This document shows, in pieces, positions 3,781 through 29,534 of a stretch of DNA of 64,000 nt. Position 1 is the first letter of the stretch; each line of letters starts with the position of its first letter. The translations under genes and the position numbers were made by a program. The notes under the pieces are model-generated. The model had not been told where the DNA came from. It searched no databases and saw nothing but the letters and a program-made list of their open reading frames with translations. Origin of the DNA: Balneola sp. (lineage in GTDB: Bacteria > Bacteroidota > Rhodothermia > Balneolales > Balneolaceae); contig OZ271847.1 in assembly GCA_965601915.1 (NCBI GenBank), positions 2,257,178-2,321,177 of the forward strand, in the 5' to 3' direction.

Positions 3781-5139
3781 TTGAAAATAGTTATCATCGG
3801 AGCAGGAGAAATCGGGTACGACCTGGCAAGCGTACTCTCCAAAGAGAAACACGATGTCATCGTTATCGATCGGGAAAAAGAATGCCTTTCTAAAACCTCC
3901 GAAACTCTTGATGTACTTGTAAAAGAAGGAAATGCCACTTCGGCTAAGGATCTTGCAGCCGTTGGGGTATCAGATGCAGATATAGTAATCGCAGTTACCA
4001 GTATAGATGAAGTAAATATGATTGCTTCCATGATCAGTAAAAAGCTGGGAGCCAAAAAGGTAATAGCTCGTGTAAGAAATGATGAGTTTTCTCATCATAA
4101 ATCCCCACTTAAGCCCACTGATCTTGGAATTGATATGATGATCAATCCCGAGCTTAGTGCCGCTCAGGAAATTGCACAGCTCTTGAAAAGATCAGCGGCA
4201 AGTGATGTAATTAATCTGGCTGATGATTTGATGCAATTGGTTGGAATCCGACTGGATAGGAATTCACCGCTTATAGGAAAAACCCTGATCGATTATGCTT
4301 CTGAAAATTCAGAGATCACCTTCAGGGTAGTCGCTATAGGCAGAAGAGGCAGAACATTAATGCCACGTGGTCCGATGAAACTACAGACGTTCGATCAGAT
4401 CTTTATACTTGCCAAAACTCAGGACATTCCAGCAATTATTGAAACTACCGGAAAATATGAAACAGATCTAAACAGAGTAATGATTGCCGGAGGAACAGGG
4501 ATTGGAACAACCATAGCTCGCATTTTATGTGGAGATTCTAAAAAAAACTGGTCTGTAAAACTTATAGAACCAGATTACGATAAAGCTGAAGAATTGGCTA
4601 TCGACCTGAAAAATGCTATGATATTGCATGGTAACCCTACCGACCCGGATCTTCTCGCTGCCGAAGGAATTACCGATATGGATGCTTTTATAGCGGTAAC
4701 AGATGACGAAGAGTCCAATATTATTTCCTGTTTAATGGCAAAACATCTGGATGTAAAAAAAACGGTTGCACTCGTATCAAAACCCGATTTCATCCCACTT
4801 AGCCAAACCATTGGCCTGGATGCAGTTGTAAATAAAAAAGTTGCTGCTTCTAATGAAATTCATCGCCATGTTCGTAGCGGACAAGTTATTTCAGTAACTG
4901 AGCTCAGAGGAATTCAGGCAGAAGTGATAGAATTATTAACTGCAAGCAGGTCTAAAATTGCAGGAAAAGAAATTCAAAATCTTAAAATGCCTGATGGATG
5001 TATCATTGGTGGAGTTTTATGCAAAGGATCCGTTGAAATTGCTACCGGACAAACTGTGATTAATTCCGGAGACAGAGTTATGGTATTCTGCCTGCCTGAA
5101 GCAATTGATAAAGTCACAAAAATGTTCAGTAATGGCTGA
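3781..5139 (+). CDS. trkA: Trk potassium uptake protein TrkA (NAD-binding, two RCK units)
   Basis: 452 aa with a TTG start. There are two Rossmann GxGxxG motifs (IIGAGEIG at the N-terminus, IAGGTGIG mid-protein), each followed by an RCK_C-like segment. Its stop overlaps the trkH start (ATGGCTGA). Confidence 0.9.
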   Translation: MKIVIIGAGEIGYDLASVLSKEKHDVIVIDREKECLSKTSETLDVLVKEGNATSAKDLAAVGVSDADIVIAVTSIDEVNMIASMISKKLGAKKVIARVRNDEFSHHKSPLKPTDLGIDMMINPELSAAQEIAQLLKRSAASDVINLADDLMQLVGIRLDRNSPLIGKTLIDYASENSEITFRVVAIGRRGRTLMPRGPMKLQTFDQIFILAKTQDIPAIIETTGKYETDLNRVMIAGGTGIGTTIARILCGDSKKNWSVKLIEPDYDKAEELAIDLKNAMILHGNPTDPDLLAAEGITDMDAFIAVTDDEESNIISCLMAKHLDVKKTVALVSKPDFIPLSQTIGLDAVVNKKVAASNEIHRHVRSGQVISVTELRGIQAEVIELLTASRSKIAGKEIQNLKMPDGCIIGGVLCKGSVEIATGQTVINSGDRVMVFCLPEAIDKVTKMFSNG

Positions 5140-6649
5140 GAAAAGCGTAATTAACGCATTTAACCGCCCAACCATTGATTTTACAGTGGTTCTTGGAGTA
5201 CTTGGAGCATTTATCTTTTTTATGGGTTTTGCTCTTTTGATGCCTTTGTTCATCGACCTCATTTATGGACAGGAAACCTGGCATTCCTTTTTAGTTTCTG
5301 CGGGAATAGCTTTCGTACTTGGTGGACTTCTATGGTATTTCTTTAAGCCTCAATCTGAACTCAGGATACGAGAAGGATTTTTAGTAGTAAGTATGACCTG
5401 GTTGGTGCTTTCACTGGTAGGGGCTCTCCCCTTCACTATTTCCGGTATTCTCCCGAATTATACCGATGCTGTTTTCGAAACCATGAGTGGACTTTCCACA
5501 ACAGGTTCTACTATTCTTGGCGGTACCACCACAACAGGAATTGTTAATCCAGCCATAGAAGAATTACCCAAAAGTTTTTTATTCTGGCGCTCGCTTGCTC
5601 ACTGGTTGGGTGGAATGGGGATAATCGTTCTTTCGCTTGCTATACTTCCATTACTTGGTATTGGTGGAATGCAGCTTTTCCAGGCAGAATCTCCGGGTCC
5701 AACAACCGACAAACTTACTCCAAGAGTACAAGAGACTGCCAAACTACTCTGGGTCGTTTACGTGGCATTTACTGGTACAGAGTTTCTATTACTTTGGGCC
5801 CATCCTTCTATGGATTGGTTTGAAGCGATCAACCACTCATTTGCAACTCTTGCCACCGGCGGATTCTCAACCAAAAATGCCAGCATCGCCGCTTTTGATT
5901 CTGCTTATGTGGACGGAATCATAACGATATTTATGTTTCTTGCCGGAATTAACTTTGCCATGCACTTTCGATTGCTCAGAGGCGAAGTAGGACCTTTTTT
6001 CGCCAATCGCGAAACCCGGTTCTATACCATAATCTGTATGATTGGTGTTTTGGGAATTTCATTTTCACTCTGGTTTTTTGACGGATATTCTTTGCTGGAA
6101 GCCATTCGTTACGGAGCTTTTCAGGCGATAGCAATAATTACCACTACGGGCTTTGGAACAGATGATTACGAACTTTGGTATTCGTTCGGAGCCTTTTTAC
6201 TGCTCCTTTTCTTCTTTACGGGCGGAAGTGCCGGATCAACCGGAGGTGGAATTAAAATGATTCGGCTTATGATTCTGATTCGAAACACAGGTCGGGAGAT
6301 CAAACAGATCATTCACCCAAGAGCTATTCTTCCGGTTAGAATTGGAGACCAGGCGATCAATCAGAATATGCAGAGAACCGTTCTGAGCTTCTTTATTCTT
6401 TACATGATCATGTTTGCACTTGGAGCCTTCATCATTTCTCTATTCGGATATGATATTATGTCTTCTGCGGGAGCAAGTATTGCCGCATTAGGAAACATTG
6501 GTCCGGGTTGGGGAGAATTCGGTCCCACCGACAGCTTTGCTAAAATGCCCTATTTAGGAAAATGGGTGATGATTATGTTGATGATGATCGGAAGACTGGA
6601 AATTTTTACTGTGTTGATCATCTTCTCTCCTGCTTTTTGGAAGCAATAA
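5132..6649 (+). CDS. trkH: Trk potassium transporter membrane subunit TrkH
   Basis: Polytopic membrane protein with repeated pore-loop-like motifs (SGLSTTGST, TGGFST, TTTGFGT, GSTGGGIK). I prefer the ATG at 5132 (MAEKSV...) over the listed TTG at 5105 because it overlaps the trkA stop. Confidence 0.9.
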   Translation: MAEKSVINAFNRPTIDFTVVLGVLGAFIFFMGFALLMPLFIDLIYGQETWHSFLVSAGIAFVLGGLLWYFFKPQSELRIREGFLVVSMTWLVLSLVGALPFTISGILPNYTDAVFETMSGLSTTGSTILGGTTTTGIVNPAIEELPKSFLFWRSLAHWLGGMGIIVLSLAILPLLGIGGMQLFQAESPGPTTDKLTPRVQETAKLLWVVYVAFTGTEFLLLWAHPSMDWFEAINHSFATLATGGFSTKNASIAAFDSAYVDGIITIFMFLAGINFAMHFRLLRGEVGPFFANRETRFYTIICMIGVLGISFSLWFFDGYSLLEAIRYGAFQAIAIITTTGFGTDDYELWYSFGAFLLLLFFFTGGSAGSTGGGIKMIRLMILIRNTGREIKQIIHPRAILPVRIGDQAINQNMQRTVLSFFILYMIMFALGAFIISLFGYDIMSSAGASIAALGNIGPGWGEFGPTDSFAKMPYLGKWVMIMLMMIGRLEIFTVLIIFSPAFWKQ

Positions 6650-6728
6650 TCTAAGTCTTTGATATTAAATTGCTTTTATTCATATTAGCCTTGATATTTT
6701 AAGAATAACATGAATAATACTTACATAT

Positions 6729-6780
6729 GCAATTGGGATAACATGAATAGTGTGCGTGTTATCCCATTGTTGGGGGCAAT
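6729..6780 (+). repeat. Cassette-boundary element: imperfect hairpin plus GTTGGGGGCAATTAAAA core immediately upstream of the Hachiman-like pair
   Basis: CAAT(T)GGGATAAC (6730-6742) pairs with GTTATCCCATTG (6758-6769) with one bulged T. GTTGGGGGCAATTAAAA (6769-6785) recurs as GTTGGCGGTAATTAAAA at 9859-9875. ATAACATGAATA is a direct repeat at 6705-6716 and 6738-6749. Confidence 0.4.
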
Positions 6781-6790
6781 TAAAAAATAA

Positions 6791-7474
6791 ATGAGCACAT
6801 ACAGAGTCATAGACAGAATTCAGATTGAGCCACATATCCTGTTCCTCAGGATTGAGCCAACCGATATTAAGTTAACTCTTGGTGATGTTTTCAAATCATT
6901 GTCCGATATTGCTTGGATAAGTGACTTCGACAAGAAGTATATAAGGGATGCGTTCACAATACGTGCTACTGAAACAATTGATTATATAGCTGATAATATT
7001 ATTGCTGAGACTAATGATGAAATAACTAAGGACTCAGGTGAAATTGTTGTTTCGGAACTAGCAAGATTAGCAATAGTAAACGAAAACAAATACTTAGATA
7101 TACCATTAGCAGAGCTTTTTAAAAGCCAAGCATCAGGAAATGATGGCTTTGACTTTTACTCTAAAAATCTCACTAAAATCATACTTTTTGGTGAGGCTAA
7201 ATTTCTTTCTGATCGCAATGCTTATGGGAAAGCTTTTAATAAAATTGTTGAATTTGTAAGCTTAGAACAAGACTCATCTGATTTACAAGATATCGATAAA
7301 TTTTACTGTGCGGAGTCTTTAGACAATCACTCCAATGGAAAGAAAGGATTTATGGCAGCCTTTTCCAGCAAAAACACAGACACCAATAGAATACTTAATG
7401 GAATAAAAGCGAATACTGACTTTAATGCCCTTAAGGGGTTTGATGAGCTAATCTGTGTTGCAGTCAACGTATGA
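6791..7474 (+). CDS. HamA-like (DUF1837-type) putative PD-(D/E)xK effector of a Hachiman-like defence pair
   Basis: 227 aa with no signal peptide. It carries a D...(x)n...E-A-K arrangement (DGFDFYSKNLTKIILFGEAKF, E135/K137), typical of PD-(D/E)xK nucleases. Its stop overlaps the start of the downstream helicase (ATGA). Size and gene order match HamA-HamB. Confidence 0.5.
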   Translation: MSTYRVIDRIQIEPHILFLRIEPTDIKLTLGDVFKSLSDIAWISDFDKKYIRDAFTIRATETIDYIADNIIAETNDEITKDSGEIVVSELARLAIVNENKYLDIPLAELFKSQASGNDGFDFYSKNLTKIILFGEAKFLSDRNAYGKAFNKIVEFVSLEQDSSDLQDIDKFYCAESLDNHSNGKKGFMAAFSSKNTDTNRILNGIKANTDFNALKGFDELICVAVNV

Positions 7475-9789
7475 ACAATGCAATAAAAAATATCATTGGT
7501 GCCGAGAATATTGGCGATATAGTATCTTTTGTTTTAGACCGAATTTATAAGAATGGGCCCGTGTCAACAACTGATATGGAAATTCTTTCCTATTTAAAGC
7601 TTTATAAACCCGAAGAATTCAATCTTCATCAGGAAAGGGTTTTACACTATATGGGTCTTTTTTATAAAGATGTTGAGCCTCAATCATTAAAAGAAGTTGT
7701 ATTCAGGCAATACAGAAGGCATATTATTGATAATTTTCAACATACATATACACCCGTACAAGCAAGTATAATTAGTGAAATTGAATCAAATAAATGCTTT
7801 AGTTTTTCGGCTCCAACGAGTACAGGAAAGTCTTATGCTTTTATGAATCTTATTCAGGAGAGCACCGATGACATTGTCATTATAGTTCCTTCAAGAGCAC
7901 TCATTAATGAGTATTATCACAAGCTTAATAAATTAATTGATAATAAATCTGTAAACATTTTAACCTTTATAGACAAGATCAACACGAAACATACAGAACG
8001 CAATGTCTTCATAGTTACACCAGAGAGGTGCAGGGAGTTATTTAAGTTTAAAGAGCAATACCAAGTAAATACATTTCTATTTGATGAAGCTCAACTGAGT
8101 AATGAAGACTCAAAACGAGGATTGTATTTTGACAGTATTGTAAGAAGGGCTCAAAAAGCATTTCCTGACTCTAAATTTGTTTTTGCCCATCCTTTTGTAG
8201 AGAATCCTGACTCCCAAATTAAAAAAAATCACTTTGAATTGGATTCATCAAAGTCAATCCGTTTCAAGCAAAAGAATGTTGGACAATTATACCTCTGCTC
8301 AGATGATGATTGGAATTTCTATCACTTCGGAATTGACAAGTCTATAATGGGCAATAGAAGAGAGAAATGTGCCTTTGACCCCATTGAAAGAACAATTAAA
8401 AACGATGGCTCTGTACTTTTCTATGTTTCAAAAAGCAAAATTTACAATAAGGGATTTCTAAATCAATTTGACAGATACATCAACTTATGTTCTGAAATTG
8501 AAGGTGAGAAAATCGATTCCTACATAGAACAGTTAAAAGAATATACAGGTGGAGATACAATAGCGAACAAAAACTATTATTCTCAACTACTTGCTTTATT
8601 AAAGAGAGGCATAGTTATACATCATGGCTCCTTACCTCTTCAAACAAGGTTAATACTTGAGAAATTTACTCAGGACGGTCTATGTAGAATTTGCTTTGCG
8701 ACATCAACCTTGGAACAAGGAGTCAACATGCCTTTTGATATTGTTTTCCTCGACAGATTAGAAAGAAGTAAACCTCTATCAGTAAAGAATCTCATAGGTC
8801 GTGCAGGAAGGTCAACTACTTTAAATGAATTTGATTTTGGCTATGTCATTATTAATGGTCCTTCTAAAATGGCTGCATTCCGAAGTGTTATTGAACAAGA
8901 TGAAATATTAGATGAAGAATCTTCACTAGAAAAGTCTGAGCAAAAAGATGAAGATTACAATGATTTCAAAGAGGCGATATTAAATGATACTTACTCTGAT
9001 GAATTCAACTTAACTGAAAAAGATTTAGAGAAACTAACATCTGAATCTACAGAAGAAGTAATTAAGAAAATTCTTGATACCGTTTTTGACAATAATCAAA
9101 TAGTACCACTAAATAGATTAAATCAAGACCCTAGGAATAGGTTGGAGCTCTACTCCTATTTTCGATTGTTATATTCAATTTATTTAAATCGTTCACTTGG
9201 TGATGGAGAAGGGAATGTATTGGATACTGCAATAAAAATTATGCTTTGGAAAGTTCACGGAAAGACTTTTAAAAACATTTGTTGGTATCGTTACTCACAC
9301 GCAAGCAAGACCAATGAAAGAGCAAGTCTAGAGAAGTATGGAAGAAATACTAATCAAATAACTGCAAACTTTATTACAGGCTACCATCCAATTCCCGATA
9401 AAAATCATAATGTATATAGTCTATTTCCTCCAGGAACAAGAGCAGTAGATGTAGATTATGACCTCATTATGACAGATACCTATGACTTTATTGACAAGCT
9501 AATTAGCTTCAAATTAACGGACGTATTTTATGCATCTTTTATAAAATATTTTCAAAAGGAAAATGATACTCGAGCCGAGAAGCTCGCCAAGTTCATTAAA
9601 TATGGAACGGATAATGAAAGACATATTTGGATGCTCCGATACGGAATGTCATTTGAAGATATTGAAAAATTAGAGCCCCATATCCTCTCTATTAATGCTG
9701 AGGAAATAGTTTTTAAGGAATCGATTTTAGAAGTACCAAAGGAAGAAAGAGAATCAATTGAAAGATTTATTAGAATACAAACAGAATAA
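7471..9789 (+). CDS. SF2 (Ski2/DExH-like) helicase, HamB-like
   Basis: Helicase motifs: Q-like TPVQ, Walker A APTSTGKS (aa 114-121), PSRALINE, motif II DEAQ (nt 8083-8094), HHGSLP...ATSTLEQGVNMP (motif V) and IGRAGR (motif VI). A ~290-aa C-terminal extension has no domain I recognise. Confidence 0.75.
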   Translation: MNNAIKNIIGAENIGDIVSFVLDRIYKNGPVSTTDMEILSYLKLYKPEEFNLHQERVLHYMGLFYKDVEPQSLKEVVFRQYRRHIIDNFQHTYTPVQASIISEIESNKCFSFSAPTSTGKSYAFMNLIQESTDDIVIIVPSRALINEYYHKLNKLIDNKSVNILTFIDKINTKHTERNVFIVTPERCRELFKFKEQYQVNTFLFDEAQLSNEDSKRGLYFDSIVRRAQKAFPDSKFVFAHPFVENPDSQIKKNHFELDSSKSIRFKQKNVGQLYLCSDDDWNFYHFGIDKSIMGNRREKCAFDPIERTIKNDGSVLFYVSKSKIYNKGFLNQFDRYINLCSEIEGEKIDSYIEQLKEYTGGDTIANKNYYSQLLALLKRGIVIHHGSLPLQTRLILEKFTQDGLCRICFATSTLEQGVNMPFDIVFLDRLERSKPLSVKNLIGRAGRSTTLNEFDFGYVIINGPSKMAAFRSVIEQDEILDEESSLEKSEQKDEDYNDFKEAILNDTYSDEFNLTEKDLEKLTSESTEEVIKKILDTVFDNNQIVPLNRLNQDPRNRLELYSYFRLLYSIYLNRSLGDGEGNVLDTAIKIMLWKVHGKTFKNICWYRYSHASKTNERASLEKYGRNTNQITANFITGYHPIPDKNHNVYSLFPPGTRAVDVDYDLIMTDTYDFIDKLISFKLTDVFYASFIKYFQKENDTRAEKLAKFIKYGTDNERHIWMLRYGMSFEDIEKLEPHILSINAEEIVFKESILEVPKEERESIERFIRIQTE

Positions 9790-9793
9790 AAAC

Positions 9794-9865
9794 TGCCCCC
9801 AACAATGTGTATAGTGCATAGCTACCCTGCGGGATAGCTACGACACCATACACGGAACGTTGGCG
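9794..9865 (+). repeat. attC-like imperfect palindrome (about 69 nt) downstream of the helicase
   Basis: Architecture is R''-spacer-L''-loop-L'-spacer-R'. CCCCAAC (9797-9803), AAT, GTGTATAGTG (9807-9816), central hairpin TAGCTACCC/GGG(A)TAGCTA with one extrahelical base, CACCATACAC (9844-9853), GGAAC, GTTGGCG (9859-9865). Confidence 0.5.
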
Positions 9866-9881
9866 GTAATTAAAAGAGACA

Positions 9882-10451
9882 ATGTGCTTACCATTAAAAT
9901 ATATATTAGATAAGATTTTAAAAATAACAGATAAGGATTGGGATATTTTTGAATCTATCCTCGAAACGAAAAAACTCAAAAAGAAAGAATACCTGTTAAA
10001 ACAAGGACAAATCTGTAGAGGAATTTACTTTTTAACGGAAGGAACAATTAGAACTTTTCACATAAATAATGATGGCAAGGAGATAAATACTGCATTCTAT
10101 TTTCAAAATGAATTTCTTCGTGAAATTGAAAGTATGACCAATAATATTCCTTCGCAAAAAAACATCCAAGCAATTGAAAACAGTACAGTTCTATACATTG
10201 ACAAAGCTAAATTGGTAATTCTTTATGAAAAATCTGAATTCTACCAAAAGTTGGGACGAATGATATTGGAAAAGTTAACCATAAGAGAACAAAAATATTC
10301 TTCATTTTTGACAACATATTCGCCTAAAGAAAGGTATTTATACATTCTCGAAAACCGCCCCGAATTTATAGAACGGATTCCCCTTCAATATTTAGCTTCA
10401 TACTTGGGAATAAGCCGAGAGTCTTTAAGTAGAATTCGGAAAAGGGTTTAA
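9882..10451 (+). CDS. Crp/Fnr-family transcriptional regulator
   Basis: 189 aa. The N-terminal part looks like a cNMP-binding beta-roll (GQICRGIYFLTEGTIRTF...DGKEI). The C-terminal part is a winged HTH (LQYLASYLGISRESLSRIRKR). Confidence 0.85.
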   Translation: MCLPLKYILDKILKITDKDWDIFESILETKKLKKKEYLLKQGQICRGIYFLTEGTIRTFHINNDGKEINTAFYFQNEFLREIESMTNNIPSQKNIQAIENSTVLYIDKAKLVILYEKSEFYQKLGRMILEKLTIREQKYSSFLTTYSPKERYLYILENRPEFIERIPLQYLASYLGISRESLSRIRKRV

Positions 10452-10461
10452 TAATTGATTT

Positions 10462-10477
10462 TGTGACTTTCGTCAAA
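10462..10477 (+). promoter_or_regulatory. Candidate CRP-type operator TGTGA-N6-TCAAA
   Basis: TGTGACTTTCGTCAAA lies between the Crp-like gene and the next ORF. It differs at one position from the classical TGTGA-N6-TCACA half-site arrangement. Confidence 0.3.
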
Positions 10478-10532
10478 GGAAGGGGATTGACTTCTCAATA
10501 ATTTTGAGCTTTAATAATTTAACACTCAAAAA

Positions 10533-10970
10533 ATGAGACAATTAATCCTAATGGCTTTTTTAAGCACTATCAGCCTTTCAAACTGTAAGGATCAAAATCA
10601 AAACAATATGAAAAATCAAATTGAAGAAGCAGTAACATCTATTGAAAAAGCTGCTGCAAACAGAGATACAAAACAACTTACGGAGCTCTTACATAAAGAC
10701 TATCGAGTAATAGCAAATCGATTTAAAGGGAGTGAAAATGCTGTAATCATTTCAAAAGAAATCTATATGCAAATGATGAAAAATAAAAAAATTGGTGGCT
10801 CAAGTTATGACATCAAGTTCAACGATATAAAAATTTCAGGACATACAGCAATTGTAGATGTTCTGTATTCATCGGAAACAACTTCAGATATGCATAAATT
10901 CCTTGTCTTAGTTCAAGATGAAAACGATGAATGGAAAGTTGTAAGTGATATTCCAATTGTAGTGGAATAA
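10533..10970 (+). CDS. NTF2-like (SnoaL/DUF4440-type) lipoprotein
   Basis: 145 aa with a signal peptide and lipobox (ISLSNC). The size and alternating pattern fit an NTF2-fold cone (LHKDYRVIANRF..., GHTAIVDVLYS..., EWKVVSD). Confidence 0.55.
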   Translation: MRQLILMAFLSTISLSNCKDQNQNNMKNQIEEAVTSIEKAAANRDTKQLTELLHKDYRVIANRFKGSENAVIISKEIYMQMMKNKKIGGSSYDIKFNDIKISGHTAIVDVLYSSETTSDMHKFLVLVQDENDEWKVVSDIPIVVE

Positions 10971-10988
10971 ATATATAGATGAAAATAG

Positions 10989-11018
10989 CGGTTTAGATTA
11001 TTATCTAAACCGTTTTTT
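10989..11018 (+). terminator. Rho-independent terminator
   Basis: A 10-bp perfect stem CGGTTTAGAT / ATCTAAACCG with a 4-nt loop is followed by TTTTTT. It starts 19 nt after the stop at 10970. Confidence 0.7.
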
Positions 11019-11101
11019 GCATTTAATTAAGTATTTTACGATTCGAAAAGTTAGTACTTAAACACACGCTACTTTTCAAATACAACCGTTGAGCAAAAAT
11101 T

Positions 11102-11932
11102 ATGAAACAAATAATATTAAGTCTAATTCTACTATTAACAGTTGAAATTTCGTACGGACAAGATTTACTCGAAGAAATTAGTGAAACGGGATTTACAATT
11201 GGAGAAACAATAAAAATTAAATCTCAACTACTGAACGAAACAAGAGATTTGAATATCTATCTACCATTGAATTATTCTCAAGACAGCTTGAAAAACTATC
11301 CCGTAATATATTTGCTTGATGGTTCTAGAGATGAGGATTTCATTCATATTTCTGGAATTGTACAATTCGGTTCTTTTTCGTGGGTTAATATGATTCCCGA
11401 ATCAATTGTTGTTGGAATAGCAAATGTAGATAGAAAAAGAGATTTTACTTATCCTTCTCAAAGTGAACTTGATCAAAAAGAGTTTCCTACGTCTGGAAAA
11501 TCTGAAAAATTCATTTCCTTTTTAGAAAAAGAACTTCAGCCCTTTATTGATTCCAAATACAGAACAACGGAAATGAAAACAATTATTGGTCAATCCCTTG
11601 GTGGACTATTAGCAACGGAGATTCTATTCAAAGAACCTGAACTATTTGACAATTATATAATTGTCAGTCCAAGTTTATGGTGGGATGACGAAAAACTGTT
11701 AGACGAAAATCCTAAAACGTATAATTCTAAAAAATCGATTTATATAGCTGGTGGAAAAGAGGGAGAAGTAATGGAACGGACTACGAAGGAGTTGTATGCT
11801 AAATTAAATAAAAATTCAAAACCGAATACAAAATTGTTTTACAAATTTTTGGAAGACAAAACACACGGAGATGCTTTACATATTGCGGTTTATGATGCAT
11901 TTGAGAAACTTTTTGAACAAAAAAAAGAATAA
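11102..11932 (+). CDS. Secreted alpha/beta-hydrolase (putative esterase family)
   Basis: Signal peptide, the YPVIYLLDG motif and the nucleophile elbow GQSLGG, which together mark the esterase-D / enterochelin-esterase-like family. Confidence 0.8.
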   Translation: MKQIILSLILLLTVEISYGQDLLEEISETGFTIGETIKIKSQLLNETRDLNIYLPLNYSQDSLKNYPVIYLLDGSRDEDFIHISGIVQFGSFSWVNMIPESIVVGIANVDRKRDFTYPSQSELDQKEFPTSGKSEKFISFLEKELQPFIDSKYRTTEMKTIIGQSLGGLLATEILFKEPELFDNYIIVSPSLWWDDEKLLDENPKTYNSKKSIYIAGGKEGEVMERTTKELYAKLNKNSKPNTKLFYKFLEDKTHGDALHIAVYDAFEKLFEQKKE

Positions 11933-11939
11933 AAATTGG

Positions 11940-12064
11940 CTACAACAATGGCTATAAGTAATTGCTTGCAGAGGGTTAAACGAACTTGGTTTCCTACTTT
12001 TTCCCTATTTTAGTACTACACCAAAAAACAACCAAAGCAACTACTCATAGCCAGCCCGTTATAG
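11940..12064 (+). repeat. attC-like imperfect palindrome (about 125 nt) downstream of the esterase gene
   Basis: Same architecture as 9794-9865. CTACAAC (11940-11946), AAT, GGCTATAAGTAATTGCTTG (11950-11968), ~64-nt variable loop, CAAAGCAACTACTCATAGCC (12033-12052; 17/19 paired plus one bulge), AGCCC, GTTATAG (12058-12064). Confidence 0.5.
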
Positions 12065-12176
12065 AAGAATTCGCTTCGCTCTTCTTATTCCCAAATTAAA
12101 CATTCAAAGAGGTTTGTAACCTTTCCCGATTTTAAAAGTGACTTTACCATAGTTACTAATATTTAAAAAAAGAGTT

Positions 12177-13637
12177 TTGAAAGTATTTTGTTTTTTAATG
12201 TGTATTTCATTCAGCACAATTTGTTTTGGGCAACAGTTAACACCTGAGCAATATACCCAGATAGATGATTATATTGAACACCTTATAGAACGACAAGGTA
12301 TCCCGGGAGTGTCAATGGCTATTAAAAAGGGAGATCAAATCATCTATAGGAAGAACTTCGGATATGCAAACTTAGAACATCAGGTTCCTGTTACTGATGA
12401 ATCTGTCTTTAGGCTTTATTCTCTCACCAAACCTGTTATTTCTGTTGGTGTGTTTCAATTAATTGAGAGTGGTAAGGTATCATTAGAAGACTTTGCTTCA
12501 GACTATGTTAATGATCTCCCAAAAGAGTGGGAATCAGTACAAATCAAGCATTTGCTTTCTCATTCCTCGGGATTACCTGATATGTCCCCCATTGCAGCAT
12601 TTCAGGATTTATCTGAAGAACAAGCTAAAGAAAAAGTGTTTTCACAAGAGGTAAGATTTAGCCCGGGCAGTAGATATGATTACAATCAAACCGGATTTTG
12701 GTTACTTCAAAAGATCATTGAAAAAGTAACAGGTAAAAGTGTATCTGCTTTTATACTCGATAATCAATTTAAAAAAAGCCAAAACACTTTTTTCTCATCT
12801 GATTCCAGAGATATCATTCGCAACAGAGTTACCCCATACTTTCCATTTACTAAAGGTACTTTGATGATCGATCACTCTTACTTACAGGGTACATACGCAC
12901 ATTCCAAAAATGGACTAAATACAACTGTAGATGATTTCATTGAATGGGATAGCTCTTTAAAACAAGATCTATTCTTAGAAAAAGAAATAAAAGACTTAAT
13001 GTGGGAAGAATATCCGTATACAAATTCTAACAGAACGTTTACTTACGGATGGGATAAAATAATAGTAAACGGTCAAGATTCTTACGGCTTTTCAGGTTCT
13101 TTGTGTACGGCTTATAGAATTTACCCCGACGACGAATTGAGTATCATTTTTCTTTCTAATGGACTTTCAAAATGGTATAACATTGACAATATTATCAATC
13201 ATATAGCCGGATTGATAGATGAGAAGCTAATAATTGCTGAAAATCTTGGTTTTGAATCTGTTCTCAGATCTTCTTTAGAAAACAATTATAAAGCTTTTGT
13301 TGAGGAATATCGTGTAATAAAAGTACACCCGTTACTGGTAAACAATAATTTTGAAACACACCTGAATGATGTGGGATATTTTTTATTAAAAGCATTAAAC
13401 AAACCGTCCAAAGCTATTGAAATTTTTGAGTTCAATACTATCGAACACCCTGATTCCTGGAATACCTATGATAGTCTTGCTGAGGCCTATGAAATAGCTG
13501 GAAATAAGAGCGAAGCAATAACAAATTATGAGAAAGCGATAAAGCTTAATCCTGATCAGGCATATAAACAATCCACTAAATCTAAAATTCAAGAATTAGC
13601 TAAAAAAAATCCACCTTCAGGAAGTCAAAATGACTGA
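12177..13637 (+). CDS. Beta-lactamase-fold serine hydrolase with C-terminal TPR repeats
   Basis: Signal peptide, the SxxK motif (YSLTKPV), a class-C beta-lactamase/DD-peptidase-like body, and a TPR-like C-terminus (WNTYDSLAEAYEIAGNKSEAITNYEKAIKLNPD). Confidence 0.85.
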   Translation: MKVFCFLMCISFSTICFGQQLTPEQYTQIDDYIEHLIERQGIPGVSMAIKKGDQIIYRKNFGYANLEHQVPVTDESVFRLYSLTKPVISVGVFQLIESGKVSLEDFASDYVNDLPKEWESVQIKHLLSHSSGLPDMSPIAAFQDLSEEQAKEKVFSQEVRFSPGSRYDYNQTGFWLLQKIIEKVTGKSVSAFILDNQFKKSQNTFFSSDSRDIIRNRVTPYFPFTKGTLMIDHSYLQGTYAHSKNGLNTTVDDFIEWDSSLKQDLFLEKEIKDLMWEEYPYTNSNRTFTYGWDKIIVNGQDSYGFSGSLCTAYRIYPDDELSIIFLSNGLSKWYNIDNIINHIAGLIDEKLIIAENLGFESVLRSSLENNYKAFVEEYRVIKVHPLLVNNNFETHLNDVGYFLLKALNKPSKAIEIFEFNTIEHPDSWNTYDSLAEAYEIAGNKSEAITNYEKAIKLNPDQAYKQSTKSKIQELAKKNPPSGSQND

Positions 13638-13789
13638 ATGATCTCTCACCTTTTTTAGCCGGTTTGTTCTTAAGAAACTATGTTTCGTTGTTTTTGTAGC
13701 AAAATCTTTTAATGAGTTTCATTTTAAGTTTCAAAATATTTTTGCAAATAAAATTATCTAAACAGATATTCTTTCATCTAAAAAAAAGA

Positions 13790-14584
13790 ATGAAATTCAT
13801 CGCTAAAAAAATTTACAAAACCCTTTTAACCTACGGTTTTGATGCTAAAAAATTTCTTAGATCCATAAATCCAAATCATGATAAATGGTTTTATGACGAT
13901 CTTAATAAATTTAAAAAGCAAAAAGGTTCAGACACCACATTCAAAATGGGTAAAATGTATCCGATTTTGACTGATAAAAGCCAAGAAGGTGGTACAATGA
14001 AAGGGCACTATTTCCATCAGGATTTATATGTAGCCCGTTTAATCAATAATGCGAAACCTGAAAAACACTTGGACATCGGGTCAAGAACGGATGGTTTTGT
14101 TGCTCATGTTGCATCATTCCGTGAAATAGAAATAATTGATATTCGATCTATAACGAGTAAAGTAAAGAATATCTCATTTCGGCAGGCAGATCTTATGCAG
14201 CTTCCCACAGACCTTGTCGAATATTGCGATTCGATTTCTTCCTTACATGCTATCGAACATTTCGGACTCGGCAGATATGGAGATGAAATTGACTATTTCG
14301 GTTATTTAAAAGCCATAAATAATATCACTAAAATGCTAAAACAGAATGGGACTTTTTATTTTTCTGTTCCCATCGGTACTCAAAGGGTAGAATTTAATGC
14401 TCACAGAGTGTTTTCTGTAAAATATCTCCTAGACATCCTTTCAGAGCAATTCGCAATTACATCCTTTTCTTACATAGATGATAACGGAGACTTTTTTGAA
14501 GATTCTGAATTAACTGAGAAGAATGTAAATACAAATTTTGAGTGTGAATACGGCTGTGGAATATTTGTTTGTACAAAAAGATGA
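13790..14584 (+). CDS. SAM-dependent methyltransferase-like protein (DUF268-like)
   Basis: Motif I-like HLDIGSRTDGF, then D-loop IIDIR and RQADLMQLP. The IEHFGLGRYGD motif is, as I recall, characteristic of DUF268-type methyltransferases. I prefer the ATG at 13790 (MKFIAKK) over the listed 13712. Confidence 0.55.
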   Translation: MKFIAKKIYKTLLTYGFDAKKFLRSINPNHDKWFYDDLNKFKKQKGSDTTFKMGKMYPILTDKSQEGGTMKGHYFHQDLYVARLINNAKPEKHLDIGSRTDGFVAHVASFREIEIIDIRSITSKVKNISFRQADLMQLPTDLVEYCDSISSLHAIEHFGLGRYGDEIDYFGYLKAINNITKMLKQNGTFYFSVPIGTQRVEFNAHRVFSVKYLLDILSEQFAITSFSYIDDNGDFFEDSELTEKNVNTNFECEYGCGIFVCTKR

Positions 14585-21444: not shown

Positions 21445-24400
21445 TTGAAGTTTAGCAGACGGCATATTGTTTCATTTCTTGTAGTGGTACTAATTCTCAT
21501 TATTTCTACCCAAGAGAGTTATGCTCAGCTCCCGGGATATAATTTCCGTTTGAAAGGACAAGTTAATTCTGCTCAGGTTTCAGGCTCTTCTACCCTTTCT
21601 AATTTTCCCGTTCTTATGAGCTTTACTATAGATGATCTTCGATCAACCGGTAATGGCGGTGGTGTTGAGAATATAAACGGTTATGATATTCGATTTACCT
21701 CTGCGAATGGAAGCACAATCTTAAGTCATCAGTTAGAAAGTTATGATCCGGTTACAGGTGCAATAGAAATGTGGGTTCGTTTCCCTACTCTTTCTGCAAC
21801 AACAGATACTGAATTTTATATCTACTTTGGTAATTCCTCAATTTCTACCGATCAGTCGAGTACAAATGTGTGGGATTCTAACTACAAAATGGTCCTTCAT
21901 CTTAATGGTGATTTTTTAGATGCATCGGGTAATGGAACTAACGGCGTAAACACCGGCACAGTTTCAACTACAGGGCAAATAGGTCTTGCGAGAGACTTCA
22001 ATAGTAATAACGATCGCATTACAGTTGCCGATAACGGAGTCTCTCCTCTTGATATCAGTGGTAACATTACTATTTCTTTATGGACCAGAATAGCAAATTT
22101 AGGAAATGGACCTGATATCATTACAAAAGGGACTTATACTAATGGTTATTCCGTCTGGGTTGATGGAGCTGGCAGACTTCAGTTTCAGATAAATAACGAT
22201 GCGTTAACAAGTCCAACCGGACAGTTGACCAATAATGTTTGGTCTTACATTACTTTTACCAGAGCGTCAAATGGAGATCGGGTTATCTATACAAATGGTG
22301 TACCTGTCGCATCTGATAATTCTCAGGAATCGTTTTCAATCAGTGATGATGATCTGTTCATATCCACCACAACTTTTGACTATTTGGGTGATATTGATGA
22401 AGTAAGAATCTCGAATTCTACAAGAAGCTCCGACTGGATTGCAACAGAATACAACAACCAAAGCAGTCCACTTACTTTTATTGCACAGCTAAATGCAGAA
22501 CCTGTCCTCTCTAATATTGAAGGAAGTGCAATTATTTTTAATTCCGGATCTCCTGCTACAGCTATCACATCTGCACTTACAGTAACTGATGGTGATGATA
22601 CTAACATAGAAAGTGCGACGGTTTCTATTACAAACAATTTCGATTCATCTGAAGATGTATTGAATTTTGCAGATCAACTTGGCATTACGGGGAGTTATGC
22701 ATCTGGAACCGGAATATTAACACTCACAGGAACTGCTACTTTATCAGATTATCAAACTGCATTAAGAAGTGTCACATATCAAAATACAGATCCGGCACCA
22801 AGTGAATTACTTCGTACTATTTCTTTTACTGTTAACGATGGCGATGATGACAGTAATTTGCAAACCAGAAACATTAGTGTTGTTAAGGTAAATAACGCAC
22901 CTGCACTTACAAATATGGAAACCGGATCTATCATATACTTTGCCGGGAATGGTCAGAAAGCTGTTACTTCTTCTATTCAGGTTAATGATTCAGATGACAC
23001 TAATATTGACAGTGCAAGAGTTCAAATTACAAGTGGCTATGTTTCTTCTGAAGATACTTTACGTTTTGTTGATCAGAATGGAATTACTGGAAGTTGGTCA
23101 GAGGTTGCCGGGCGTTTAATTTTAACTGGTTCTGCAACACTCGCTACTTATCAGTCTGCTATAAGATCCATCACATATGAGAATGAATCCGGTTCTCCAA
23201 CAATGACAACACGGACTATTAGCTTTACAGTAAATGACGGAACAGAGAACAGCTCTATAGTTACACGGGATGTAGAATACCCGTCCACGATAACAGACCT
23301 TGCGCTATATAAAGGCAACGGTGTATTCCACTATGACGCATTCGATGTTGATGGAGATTTGGATTTAGGTGATCAGCCTGGAACTCCATCTGCTATTTCT
23401 CCGTGGGGGGATCGTTCTGATAATGTAGCTGCAAGTACGGCTGACCTTTCTGCTACCAATGGAGCCGGAGCACAACGTCCTAATTTTGATCCTGTTTTTT
23501 TAGGAGGCAGAGGTGCTCTTCAGTTTGATGGTACAGATGATAACCTAAGTCTCCCAAACAATTCCATTCTTAATACCGGTAGCTATACTGAAAAATCATT
23601 TGCTATGATGTTCAGAACGGGCTCTTCTACTGCAGGTCTTCAAATTATGTATGAGCAAGGCGGAGGAACTCGTGGGTATCAATTAAGCATAAAAGATGGA
23701 ATTTTGTACGCCTTTGTTTGGAATAATTCAGAATGGCCCGGAACTGATGAATATAAATCAATTAACCTTGGTACAGTTCAGCCTAATACATCATATATCA
23801 TAATTGCCAGCCATGATGCTTCTGCTGGTGCTCTTGTCGATAAAGTTTGGGAAGCAAATGTAAATGGCGGTACAATTTCCACACTTACAAATGTTGATTT
23901 TCAAAGAGCTCACAGTGGTGGTGCTGAAATAGGCGAAGAAGACGGAACACGTGACCCTGCTACTACCGGAAACAACCCTGCCGGCACTAATAATTTTCAG
24001 GGAATTATTGGTGAATTTGTTTCATGGAATTCTGCGTTGTCATCATCAGATTTTACCAATATTTATGGGTATTTAAATGATAAATGGTTCAATACATCTT
24101 CTGTACTTTCAAACATTGAAGTATCCCCTCTCATTTATAATGAGGGAGATCCTGCTTCAATTATTACTTCATCCATCACCGTTTCAGATGAAGATGACAC
24201 TAACCTTGATAGCGCAAGAGTTTACATTTCCTCAGGATTTGATAGTTCGCAAGACGTTTTATCCGGAAGTGGAACTGGTATTTCAGGAAGCTATAACAGT
24301 ACTACGGGGGTACTTTCTCTTACCGGTTCTTCTACGGTAGCGAACTATCAAGCAGCATTACAATCAGTAACTTACGAAAATACAGAAACTACAAGCCCCT

Positions 24401-27400
24401 CTACTACTGCCCGTGAAATCAGCTACATTGTTTATGATTGGGATGATTCGAGTGGAGTTGTGACAAGAGAAATCAATATTAATCCTTCGAATGATGTACC
24501 TCTAATTGTAGGACTTGAAGGGTCCACTCTCTCTTTTACTGAAGGTGATGGCCCCACTCAGGTAACTTCTGCCATAACAATTTCTGATACGGATGATGCC
24601 AATTTACAAGGTGCTACAGTTGCTTTCACCACTAACTATTTTTTAGGCGAAGATGTACTTGATTATACAAACGCACTTGGAATTACCGGCTCTTTTAATG
24701 CCACAACAGGAGTTCTTACTCTTTCTGGAACTACTACATTATCTAATTATCAAACAGCTTTAAGAGCTGTCACCTATGAAAACACTAGTTCGGACCCTGT
24801 TGCCGGTCTTGATCGTAAAATTGAATTCCGAGTATATGATGGTATCGATAGCAGTATAGTAGGAACTACCAGAGATATTTCCGTAACGAGTTTAAATACG
24901 GTTCCAACTCTTGCTAATATTGAAACAGCAAACATTTTTTATAACATCGGCGATTCTTCTTTAGTATCTGAAACCATCACAATAACAGATCCTGACGATA
25001 CAAATATTGAAACCATCGATTTACAAATAACAAGCGGTTACCTACCTGCGGAAGATACATTGGTTTTTCAGGATATTTTTGGGGTTACATCATCCTGGAA
25101 CGATGGTTCAGGAACTTTAACTTTGACCGGTCCTGCTCTTAAAGCTGATTTCCGTTCTGCACTCCGTACGGTTCGGTATAAAAATACTTCCCCTACTCCT
25201 ACTGATTCCGACAGAATCGTAAGTATCACCGCAAATGATGGTGATGGAGACAGTAATACATTGGCAAGAACCATTTCATATAGTATTCCGAAATCGGTTA
25301 CAGACCTTCTATTATGGCTGGATGGAAATGAAGGCACATTCACTACAACGGGAGGTGGAACATCAAGTACTCAGGGAAGCAATGTAGGCAGGTGGGAAGA
25401 TCAAAGTGGTAATGCACGTCATTTTACTGCTACAGGAACATCTCCGATCTATCAAACCAGTGTTGGGAGTATCAATTCTCAAAATGCCATTGAATTTCCG
25501 GGAGGATCTGCTGTTCGTCTTGAGGATACTGATGCTGAAAACTATTTAAACGGACTTGATGAAATTACAATCTTTTTTGTTATTGAATCTGATGGAGTGG
25601 GAACTGACAGAGGCTTCTGGACAACTTATGAACCTAATGGAGGTGGAAACGACGAGGTTTTCAGTATTCGCTATGATGATGTTGGTGATAATGGTAGTGG
25701 CGATGACGTAATTACTACTGGTATGCGTGACCTTCCTGTTGCCTTCGTTCAGGAAAGTTTTGAGGATGCCCAGACAACGAACGGTCAGATTGTTATGCTT
25801 AAATGGAAATCTGAAGAAAACTATGAACTCTATGTAGATGGTGTTTTAAGTAATCCAACTTTTTTCCAAAATATACCAACCGGTGTTTTAACAGATGTCA
25901 CGACCGCAATAATTGGTCAGGGAACTCAGGATCAAAGCGATAGTTGGGATGGTTTAATTGCTGAAGTAATTCTTTATGGAAAAGAGGTTTCATTAACCGA
26001 GCAGCAAGATGTTGAAGATTATCTTTCTACAAAATACAGCATTCCGATACGTTCTTTCACTGCTGCAACGGGTGGAGAGGCTATTTCTGCAGATGATGCA
26101 AATACCACATACACTACCCTTTCAGGTCCACGAGTTCAGGAAAGCTTCCTGGGAGAATTTACGAATGGAGGAACATTTGTCTTCAATGCTCCGACAGGTT
26201 ATGAATGGGATACAAGTGGCGGTGCTCCTTCTGCTTCGGTAGCCCCGGCATTTGGCGGAAGCACAGAATTGACTATTGGTTTCACCAGTAGAACTTCATC
26301 TCAGATAATTTTTACAGTATCTGCTGTTTCTACTACGAACCCGGGAGAAATTACCTTTTCTGATTTCAGAGTCAGACCTACTACAGGAATACTTCCAAAT
26401 ACAGGAAACATTACAAATACAGGCACTACCGGATTAGGAGGTAGTACAAATTATGGTCAGCTTACGATGGTGCCGGGTACACAAGTAGAAATGAAATTTA
26501 CCCAACAACCAACAGCCTCCAATGTAAGTGCGGCAATTTCTCCCGCTGTAAGAGTTCAATTGATTGATCAATTTGGTAACTCTGTAACAGAAAGTCGTGT
26601 AGATATCACTATGAGCCTAAATACTGTTAGTGGCTCAGGAACACTTGGAGGAACAACAACAGAAGAAACCAATGTTTTCGGAATTGCAGAATTTGATGAC
26701 ATAAATATCGATGATATTGGTACTTATAACTTAACTGCATCAAGTACCGGTTTAACTGATGCTACCAGTTCTGACTTTGATGTTGTAGTTGTTGGTCAGC
26801 TTACTCAGTTTACGGTTCAAAGAGTTCCATCCGGTAATATTGCGGATAAATTGGCTGGTCAAAATTTTAATATCACAGTTGTTGCCACTGATGGATTACA
26901 GGATACAGTAGATACATTTACAGGAACAGCCGTACTTACCTCAAATTGTTCACTTGGTACCGGACAGGGAACTACTCCAAACTTTGTTGGAGGAGTACTT
27001 TCAAGCAGAACTGTTTCAATATCGAATGTAGGAACCTGCACTATTACTGCTACCAACAGTGCCGGAACTGAAACCGGTTCGAGTAATTCATTCGATGTAA
27101 CCCCAGGAGTTGCTTCTCCTGCAACATCTGCAATAACAGCAAGTCCAACTGTGATTTTAAACGACGGATTTTCTACTTCAACAATTACTGTTCAACTTAA
27201 AGATAGTGAAGGCAACAACCGCACCACTGGTGGACAAACAATTATACTAAATACCACTGATGGTTCTCTTAGTACAGTAACTGATAATGGAAACGGAACT
27301 TATTCTGCCACTCTAACTTCTTCAGTAATAGCAGGTCTGGCAACTATTACAGGTACTTTGGACGCTGTCGCGATAACAGATAATGCAGAAGTCGAATTTG

Positions 27401-29442: not shown

Positions 29443-29534
29443 TTGAATACATCTCTTTTAATGTGGAAGTTAGAATTGGTTAATGAAGCCAAATAAACTT
29501 GGTTAATTGCTATCTTTCTTTATATATCAAGAAG

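Follow-up and report, generated by a model that had tools for sequence, protein, structure and literature searches.

Gene content and boundary repeats of the locus

We analysed a 64-kb stretch of DNA from Balneola sp. (assembly GCA_965601915.1, contig OZ271847.1; hereafter the window), in which a Hachiman-like defence gene pair lies downstream of trkH, between imperfect palindromes that resemble the attC sites of integrons. We propose, with a probability of roughly 0.8, that positions 6651-12091 belong to a sedentary integron-like cassette platform, inserted downstream of trkH, of which they form the integrase-proximal end and from which the integrase gene has been deleted. The parts stand in the order ΔintI-attI-[hamA-like hamB]-attC-[crp-like DUF4440]-attC*-[esterase]-attC. 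Beyond them lies a degenerate copy of a hairpin element, 35 nt long, that holds no open reading frame (ORF). All coordinates are positions in the window (Table 1), L-numbers designate related loci, and P-numbers designate integrase homologue proteins.

The trkA and trkH genes extend to 6649 and are conserved as a pair across 80 Balneolaceae loci, and a trkH-based scan with one genome per species places the window in Balneola, its best matches having about 90% protein identity. The content downstream differs among these loci. The window's own genes were found within 10 kb downstream of trkH in 0 of the 80 relatives, and the region is therefore variable. The later genes, from the hamA-like gene through a methyltransferase gene, are all on the plus strand; 3' of the esterase gene come a gene for a beta-lactamase-fold/TPR protein and then the methyltransferase gene, also on the plus strand. 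An earlier reading of this DNA, made from the letters and translations alone (the sequence-only reading), had likewise described all ORFs as pointing the same way, and those from 6791 to 14584 are indeed co-oriented. The Hachiman pair that it named stands in part. As in type I Hachiman (HamA/HamB), HamB and an overlapping upstream partner form a two-gene operon, and HamB is recognised by its PADLOC profile; in contrast to type I Hachiman, the 227-aa partner had no significant match among Pfam and PADLOC profiles, including HamA/DUF1837.

The pair is bracketed, as had been reported, by a perfect 14-nt inverted repeat, CATTGTTGGGGGCA at 6765-6778 and TGCCCCCAACAATG at 9794-9807. Such repeats are not rare in this AT-rich window, where we observed 8 pairs within 4 kb against 2.6 expected from Markov simulations, 88 of 100 of which contained at least one, and we rejected the significance of the repeat by itself. 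Because chance alone makes such repeats, its weight comes from its position and from comparative data. The direct repeat GTTGGSGGYAATTAAAA, also noticed at both boundaries, is present in exactly two copies in the window, at 6769 and 9859, which lie 22 and 23 nt upstream of the hamA-like and crp-like start codons, respectively; an exact match of this kind arose in 0 of 100 shuffles. The R'' box that follows the helicase gene, TGCCCCCAAC, pairs perfectly over 10 bp with the 5' end of its own cassette, GTTGGGGGCA, and at only 8 of 10 positions with that of the next cassette, GTTGGCGGTA, in agreement with what a cassette model had been said to predict.

The elements at 9797-9865 (69 nt) and 11940-12064 (125 nt) do share the architecture R''-AAT-stem...stem-5 nt-R'. 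Their supposed bulged bases mostly do not survive scrutiny: in the top strand these are largely A·C mismatches, which become G·T wobbles in the bottom strand. Folding of the bottom strand, which had been suggested as a check, gave -19.9 kcal/mol for 9790-9880 (z = -5.5), compared with -13.7 for the top strand. A further core-like GTTGAGC does precede the esterase gene, at a distance of 7 nt, not 8, from its ATG at 11102; it belongs, as the R' box, to a third attC, which has decayed and which aligns end to end with long attC sites. Cassette 2 is bounded by the R' boxes of attC1 and attC2.

Table 1. Coordinates of the array, its sites and the adjoining anchor gene in the 64-kb window
Feature	Position	Strand	Details
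trkH	5105-6649	+	Pfam TrkH, 241 bits; conserved chromosomal anchor adjoining the platform
Integrase-gene remnant	6651-6683	-	Reads MNKSNLISKT*; codons 1-9 (6683-6657) homologous, remainder deleted
attI-like site	6679-6772	+	Four boxes; crossover G6769/T6770
attI box 1, inverted	6679-6690		Overlaps the integrase ATG
attI box 2	6703-6717		GAATAACATGAATAA
attI box 3	6735-6750		GGGATAACATGAATAG
attI box 4, inverted	6757-6765		TGTTATCCC
Cassette 1	6770-9859	+	hamA-like gene, hamB and their own attC
hamA-like gene	6791-7474	+	227 aa; matched by no profile; 4-nt overlap with hamB start
hamB	7471-9789	+	Hachiman DEAD-box helicase, 772 aa; PADLOC HamB 189 bits, E 3e-56; Pfam DEAD, Helicase_C
attC1	9797-9865	+	69 nt; R'' CCCCAAC 9797-9803; R' GTTGGCG 9859-9865; crossover G9859/T9860
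Cassette 2	9860-11088	+	crp-like cNMP-binding regulator 9882-10451; DUF4440 protein 10533-10970 (Pfam)
attC2, decayed	10963-11094	+	R'' mutated; R' GTTGAGC 11088-11094 intact
Cassette 3	11089-12058	+	Esterase 11102-11932 (Pfam Esterase, 92.9 bits) and its own attC
attC3	11940-12064	+	125 nt; R'' CTACAAC; R' GTTATAG 12058-12064; crossover G12058/T12059
Degenerate copy of the 35-nt ORF-less hairpin element	12059-12091	+

The palindromes form a covarying family of sites

Thirteen sites, with attC1 and attC3 among these seeds, were aligned as bottom strands and used to build a covariance model, R1. A hand-written hairpin scanner (AAC...GTT plus L-box pairing) served only to choose the seeds, its 414 candidates at or below -10 kcal/mol being too noisy for other use. 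The alignment supports an R box of 5 pairs, followed by a spacer that is unpaired and asymmetric and by an L stem of 18 bp. With filters off, R1 recovered from the 64-kb window attC1 (61 bits) and attC3 (84.8 bits), both of them seed sequences, as well as a partial match at attC2 (10982-11075, 25.8 bits, E about 1e-3), and nothing beyond these two full sites and one partial one. In 1.58 Mb of related loci, 27 of 27 matches lay inside arrays, on the array's bottom strand; the core flanks, about 800 kb, yielded none.

In a set of 33 distinct sites, pairing extends to 93.6% of cells, compensatory changes occur in 16 of the 18 L-stem pairs, and the covariation score was reached by none of 500 shuffles. 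AAC and GTT are invariant or almost so, and G·T wobbles are near-invariant at three positions (32/33, 31/33 and 23/33 sites). The unpaired spacer measures 4-6 nt against 2 nt. The 18-bp L stem is uninterrupted in 27 of the 33 sites and bulged in 6, on the opposite (L') side, and these sites have no canonical L''-side extrahelical bases in the folded bottom strand. Site lengths range from 60 to 194 nt, with clusters at 60-73 and 112-133 nt, and loops from 20 to 150 nt. The bottom strand is the more stable one in 25 of the 33 sites (median 2.1 kcal/mol, Wilcoxon p = 1e-4). The arms of attC3 are near-identical to those of L012:13961-14090, and homologues of attC1, of about 67-69 nt, follow hamB in L088 and L089, with others in L085.

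The decayed attC2 aligns over its full length with class A attC sites, the long ones, and its R'' reads GGAATAA in place of xxxxAAC, overlapping the stop codon of the DUF4440 gene. It also contains a 12-bp hairpin at 10987-11014, followed by a T-run, that resembles an intrinsic terminator and suggests that the attC was re-used as the terminator of the crp-like/DUF4440 operon. This hairpin, the position of the palindromes just past stop codons, and the expectation of a perfect 14-nt inverted repeat within 4 kb by chance are what one would cite for reading the palindromes as repetitive extragenic palindromes (REP), miniature inverted-repeat transposable elements (MITE), terminator hairpins or repeats due to chance, none of which would contribute to the mobility of cassettes. 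The distribution of the family is at odds with such an origin, since neither the core flanks nor the remainder of the window contain it. In the window and the related loci, the sites covary, are restricted to arrays and are not a dispersed repeat, no dispersed copies having been found beyond the arrays; a kinship with REP or MITE elements, which the sequence-only reading had listed as a way for its proposal to fail, is not what we see.

Cassettes turn over exactly at G/TT in related loci

Three strains provide natural variants of the array. L082, L083 and L084 carry an identical integrase (P0004) and a common core flank, and their arrays differ by whole cassettes. The sequence that they have in common runs through attI, ends ...CCATTG/TTG (the slash marks the point of exchange), and then diverges. 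The cassette beginning TTGGCAGTAATTATT abuts attI in L082 but the attC of a mer cassette in L084, while the cassette beginning TTAGCTCTCACCC is preceded by three different attC sites in L082, L083 and L084. Similarly, L131 and L132 have identical integrases (P0051), and their first gene cassettes differ after ...GGAACCG/TT. A cassette preceded by attI in one strain thus stands behind different attC sites elsewhere, and identity always begins at G/TT. The comparison of strains that had been called for therefore gives cassette gain and loss exactly at this junction, in L082-L084, L090, L131 and L132. Additionally, R'' pairs with the 5' end of its own cassette over 7-10 bp in eight cassettes, including in the window and in L012 (two cassettes), L082, L083, L084 and L088.

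The Hachiman-like cassette itself has been found in other surroundings. In the metagenomic locus L090, whose HamB is 94% identical, the cassette has the same start, G/TTGGGGGCAATTAAAAAATAAATG, and lies directly after another cassette's 133-nt attC, at the place where the window has attI. In L088 (HamB 79% identical), the 5' end reads GTTAGGGGC and the cassette's own R'' reads GCCCCTAAC, a compensatory change relative to GTTGGGGGC and GCCCCCAAC in the window. More distant hamAB pairs (56-66%) in L093, L095, L101 and L111 are also flanked by this family of sites. Judged from these sequence comparisons, the Hachiman-like cassette is a mobile one. Both the exactness of the breakpoints in natural variants and the pairing of R'' with its own 5' end, with a compensatory change between homologous cassettes, stand against repeats or terminators without a role in mobility, an explanation that is already contradicted by the present evidence and that we consider scarcely tenable.

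The mer cassette of L084 (L084:5728-9714, array strand) holds a complete mer operon, with an HTH regulator, merT, HMA proteins, merB and merA. It behaves as a single 4.4-kb cassette of six genes with one attC, is attI-proximal, and is present in one of three otherwise near-identical strains. The cassettes of L085 carry restriction-modification, Mrr-like and AAA_21 genes.

Two further hamAB loci have a different layout. In L087 (HamB 91% identical), direct repeats of about 70 nt, instead of attC sites, stand on both sides of hamAB and likewise of the ORF after it (5196-5265 / 8438-8507 and 9130-9196 / 9808-9874), and the 5' junction ...ATCATTG/TTGGGGACAATTAAAAA is kept; the locus may represent another kind of array delimited by repeats, or an attI that was rearranged. 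In L121 (560-760), the 3' end of hamB is followed by the same R'', TGCCCCCAAC, and then, in place of the 69-nt site, by the L arm of a class A (long) attC, which implies exchange or replacement inside an attC rather than at G/TT.

Small ORF-less elements also recur in the arrays. A 35-nt hairpin, TTGGAGAAGAATTCGCTCCGCTCTTCTTCTCCAACG, is found right after attI or attC sites in different genera, and a second element, a palindrome of about 100 nt between CAAC...GTT, recurs directly after attI or attC sites as well. These elements are located at L085:3587-3688, 5861-5962 and 7781-7882, after attI in L131/L132, L013 and L014, and at 12059-12091 in the window; they look like empty cassettes or minimal attC sites. 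The element in the window has GAATTCGCTYCGCTCTTC in common with L013, L014, L085, L131 and L132. A blastn-short search of the array end (12041-12400) against all loci gave no match, and the sharing of this hairpin element of about 30 nt was seen by eye.

An integrase remnant and an attI-like site mark the integrase-proximal end

The sequence-only reading had described the array as having no integrase in view. The gene is indeed absent, and no recombinase gene was found elsewhere in the 64-kb window. Its first nine codons survive, as MNKSNLISK (6683-6657), which corresponds to MNKTELISK in L001, and the break lies 7 nt past the trkH stop codon. No integrase is visible, therefore, because the gene was deleted, as indicated by these nine codons and by the attI-like site beside them. 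In L001, the attI-like site is preceded by a minus-strand tyrosine-recombinase gene, a frameshifted pseudogene that starts MNKTELISKYNHHL. The integrase gene has also decayed in other loci, through an internal deletion in L014 and to an N-terminal fragment alone in L040. The suggestion that the window might be the distal part of a sedentary integron is thus reversed, for the attI-like site at 6679-6772 and the remnant place it at the integrase-proximal end.

The attI-like site lies beside the integrase start in L081, L082, L085, L020, L131 and L133, and beside or downstream of trkH in L004, L005, L012, L013 and L021; downstream of trkH, its end always reads ...TG/TT. Its boxes shift together between integrase lineages (GGATAACATGAA, GGATAAAGTGAA, GGAATATGATGAA and GGATAACACCAA), the pattern expected of binding sites that co-evolve with the integrase. 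Two observations bear on its use as the point of insertion: the conserved four-box site ends in G/TT, and the cassette next to attI in L082 is separated from attI in L084 by the extra mer cassette. One genome (CP030887) has both a trkH platform without integrase, L013, and a locus with an intact integrase next to a dCTP deaminase gene, L085; the attI sequences of the two are nearly identical, so that an integrase could plausibly act in trans. The window's attI-like site includes a sigma-70-like TTGATA-16 nt-AATAAT (6691-6718, plus strand), directed towards the cassettes, which could be a Pc-type promoter. A promoter scan of the region found 16 sigma-70 sites where 25 were expected, that is, not above chance, so that this candidate is only a lead.

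Intact homologues of the integrase (P0001-P0120), most of them from Balneolaceae, have 280 aa, and in every locus examined their genes are divergent from an attI-like site, behind which lie co-oriented small genes. The family is not a housekeeping enzyme, because its genes lie beside cassette arrays, occupy more than one locus per genome and have repeatedly become pseudogenes. Nor is it a canonical IntI, which is what the sequence-only reading had suggested looking for. Scores against NF040815 (NCBIfam, XerA-type) are 219-237 bits, with 2 of 3 tested integrases above the cut-off of 220, whereas the integron-integrase model TIGR02249 is matched in two stretches at 205-209 bits, below its cut-off of 265. 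In the alignment of P0004 with IntI4 (PDB 2a3v), residues 11-183 and 204-276 correspond to chain positions 10-182 and 246-318, leaving 20 residues in P0004 where IntI4 has 63, about 43 fewer. By this alignment, the 280-aa family is without the IntI-specific domain, which published work regards as the hallmark of integron integrases. Among solved structures, XerA (5hxy, 4a8e) is closest in sequence, followed by IntI4 (2a3v), and the nearest relatives in a library of 1.8 billion proteins are XerA/IntI-like and also without the insertion, many having N-terminal extensions.

These properties invite the proposal that the platform is real and recombines in the manner of Xer, on duplex DNA, with the palindromes acting as two inverted protein-binding arms. 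Such a mechanism would suit an integrase that is Xer/XerA-like and without the additional IntI domain, described as serving the specialised single-strand pathway (PMC4792948), and the inverted boxes of the attI-like site are typical of duplex core sites. Nevertheless, the stem pairs covary although their sequence is free to vary, a pattern that favours selection for pairing within the strand over sequence-specific binding of arms, the near-invariant G·T wobbles pair in one strand only, and the bottom strand is systematically the more stable. Stems of at least 18 bp and loops of 20-150 nt are also far from the 28-bp dif-type site. We therefore regard recombination on duplex DNA as unlikely.

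A model for the platform and its relation to canonical integrons

In the model that we favour, of an integron-like platform that has lost its integrase, a 280-aa tyrosine recombinase such as that of the intact relatives would have been transcribed divergently from the attI-like site. Cassettes would be inserted at this site, each starting with TT and ending with the G of an attC-like site of the form R''(xxxxAAC)-3 nt-18 bp L stem-variable loop-L stem-5 nt-R'(GTTxxxx). The crossover would fall between the G and TT of R', and a cassette's R'' would therefore pair with the bases that open the same cassette. It is most likely the bottom strand, in folded form, that recombines, because the stem covaries and the three G·T wobbles pair only in this strand. 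With the integrase cut to nine codons, the three cassettes of the window would be frozen, except if the genome encodes a paralogous integrase at another locus that acts on them in trans. This model would account both for a Hachiman-like pair between palindromes beside trkH and for the invisible integrase. The comparisons show directly how the sites are built and that they covary, where natural breakpoints fall, that integrase and attI adjoin, and that the integrase gene has decayed.

Several points weigh against this model. We infer that the 280-aa integrase catalyses exchange at these sites, as we do the single-stranded substrate and mobilisation in trans, and the family is without the insertion that has been held necessary for integron activity (Messier and Roy 2001, in the account given in PMC4889954; PMC4792948). 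The energy advantage of the bottom strand is modest and is absent in 8 of the 33 sites. Several of the supposed cassettes comprise 2-6 genes, more than is usual in integrons. The attC of cassette 2 is decayed, and the beta-lactamase-like and methyltransferase genes are not followed by one, which together leave the end of the array undefined. Finally, the sites of the window escape a proxy model of canonical attC sites. This model, R2, was built from our canonical reference, six attC sites of class 1 integrons on plasmids, which show 5- and 6-nt spacers and a G bulge on the L'' side. R2 had no match among the window sites, and scored only 9.7-12.4 bits on the sites of L085, against 15-23 bits on those of L017; being a weak proxy, it shows by its failure to detect the window sites that these are divergent, and not that IntegronFinder misses them. 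R1, for its part, did not detect the class 1 attC sites.

The last result bears on the possibility that the locus is an ordinary integron remnant of the kind termed CALIN (attC sites that are clustered but have no integrase), with standard attC sites serviced by a canonical IntI encoded elsewhere and a 280-aa recombinase unrelated to cassette movement. The logic of R'' and R', the crossover at G/TT and the pairing of R'' with its own 5' end are exactly the rules of integrons, and Balneola genomes do carry canonical-type attC arrays, such as that found by R2 in L017. However, the 280-aa gene stands divergently beside the attI-like site in every intact platform examined, the attI boxes vary with the integrase lineage, and a canonical IntI was found in no locus holding these arrays. 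The sites, moreover, have spacers of 3 and 5 nt where canonical sites have 5 and 6 nt, have no L'' extrahelical G, and are separated from the canonical class by the lack of cross-detection between R1 and R2. An ordinary remnant thus appears quite improbable. The sequence-only reading was right that attC-type sites delimit cassettes here; its assignment to the CALIN type in the IntegronFinder sense is not established, the sites being of a distinct class. The window has two full sites, one partial site and no integrase when searched with R1, and no sites with the weak proxy R2. It resembles a CALIN in having several attC-type sites and no integrase gene, but it also has an attI-like site and an integrase remnant, which make it a complete platform that has been decapitated. 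What adjoins the array is a nine-codon remnant, not an integrase gene encoding the additional IntI domain (intI_Cterm, near patch III).

The canonical-type array of L017 (15013-17728, also present in L018) comprises six sites of 90 nt that are almost the same in sequence and in which the G of GCTT(G)AAAC is extrahelical. R1 did not detect it, and no integrase was found in the L017 locus. Balneola genomes therefore hold two classes of attC. The L017 sites were left out of the R2 alignment, in which MAFFT had put the L box one column off register.

Among known systems, sedentary chromosomal integrons such as the Vibrio cholerae superintegron (IntIA, attIA and VCR-type attC) are the closest in organisation. 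Shared features include an integrase divergent from attI, co-oriented cassettes, R'' (..AAC) and R' (GTT..) boxes with a G/TT crossover, and the pairing of R'' with the 5' end of its own cassette. In both, new cassettes enter beside attI and arrays vary between strains, and each site is an imperfect palindrome whose loop varies and whose unpaired spacer is asymmetric. The Hachiman-like cassette has a further parallel in the defence systems reported as integron cassettes in Vibrio (bioRxiv 10.1101/2024.07.02.601686). The platform differs in its 280-aa integrase, which is without the IntI-specific insertion and below the TIGR02249 cut-off, in the shorter spacers, in the conserved G·T wobbles that stand in for extrahelical bases, in cassettes that often hold 2-6 genes, and in its host, a member of the Balneolota. 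The cassette logic is that of the integron, while neither the integrase nor the detailed structure of the sites is canonical, and both differ from classical integrons in features thought essential.

Other recombination systems resemble the platform in single features. The 280-aa family has its best profile, NF040815, in common with the XerA-type or "integron-like subgroup" simple tyrosine recombinases (Smyshlyaev et al. 2021, PMC8138268), but XerA resolves chromosome dimers at dif whereas this family adjoins cassette arrays. With a length of 60-194 nt and 18-bp stems, the sites depart from the Xer/dif type, a duplex of about 28 bp with two arms and a 6-8 bp spacer. The pdif modules of Acinetobacter plasmids, which depend on Xer, are discrete gene modules bounded by Xer-family sites, in the form of 28-bp dif-like duplexes in alternating orientation; we know of no dedicated adjacent integrase or attI in these modules. 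Discrete gene modules bounded by recombinase sites are thus common to both systems, but the sites described here are covarying hairpins in a single orientation. Hairpin-guided transposition of the IS200/IS605 type was considered and dropped, since an HUH transposase is absent and the boundaries obey the integron rule.

Integrons are defined, computationally and mechanistically, by the extra domain of the integrase and the extrahelical bases of attC. Here, a natural system with neither feature keeps attI, exchange at G/TT, self-complementary R boxes and the turnover of cassettes between strains. We see it as an even chance that a separate class of integron exists in Balneolaceae, and probably in other bacteria too, with an IntI/XerA-like integrase that is without the domain deemed indispensable and a recombinogenic strand marked by G·T wobbles; such a class might be a survivor from before IntI or an independent solution. 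With the same balanced confidence, we suggest that it would stock defence systems (Hachiman, restriction-modification) and operons such as mer. If confirmed, this would mean that integron finders now under-count cassette platforms outside Proteobacteria; IntegronFinder 2.0 reported only one complete integron in Bacteroidetes, in Salinibacter ruber. It would also provide a tractable comparison for the evolution of single-strand hairpin recombination from Xer-like enzymes, and extend the idea of defence systems as integron cassettes to the Fibrobacteres-Chlorobi-Bacteroidetes (FCB) group. A search of the full-text literature gave no relevant account of integrons or attC under Balneola, Balneolaceae or related names, and we found no report of such a platform in the searchable literature, subscription literature lying outside the search.

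Other features of the window

Rfam families, at the gathering threshold, had no match in the window. Farther along its plus strand, beyond the array, the window contains two neighbouring giant ORFs, at 21445-29442 (2665 aa) and 29499-37055 (2518 aa).

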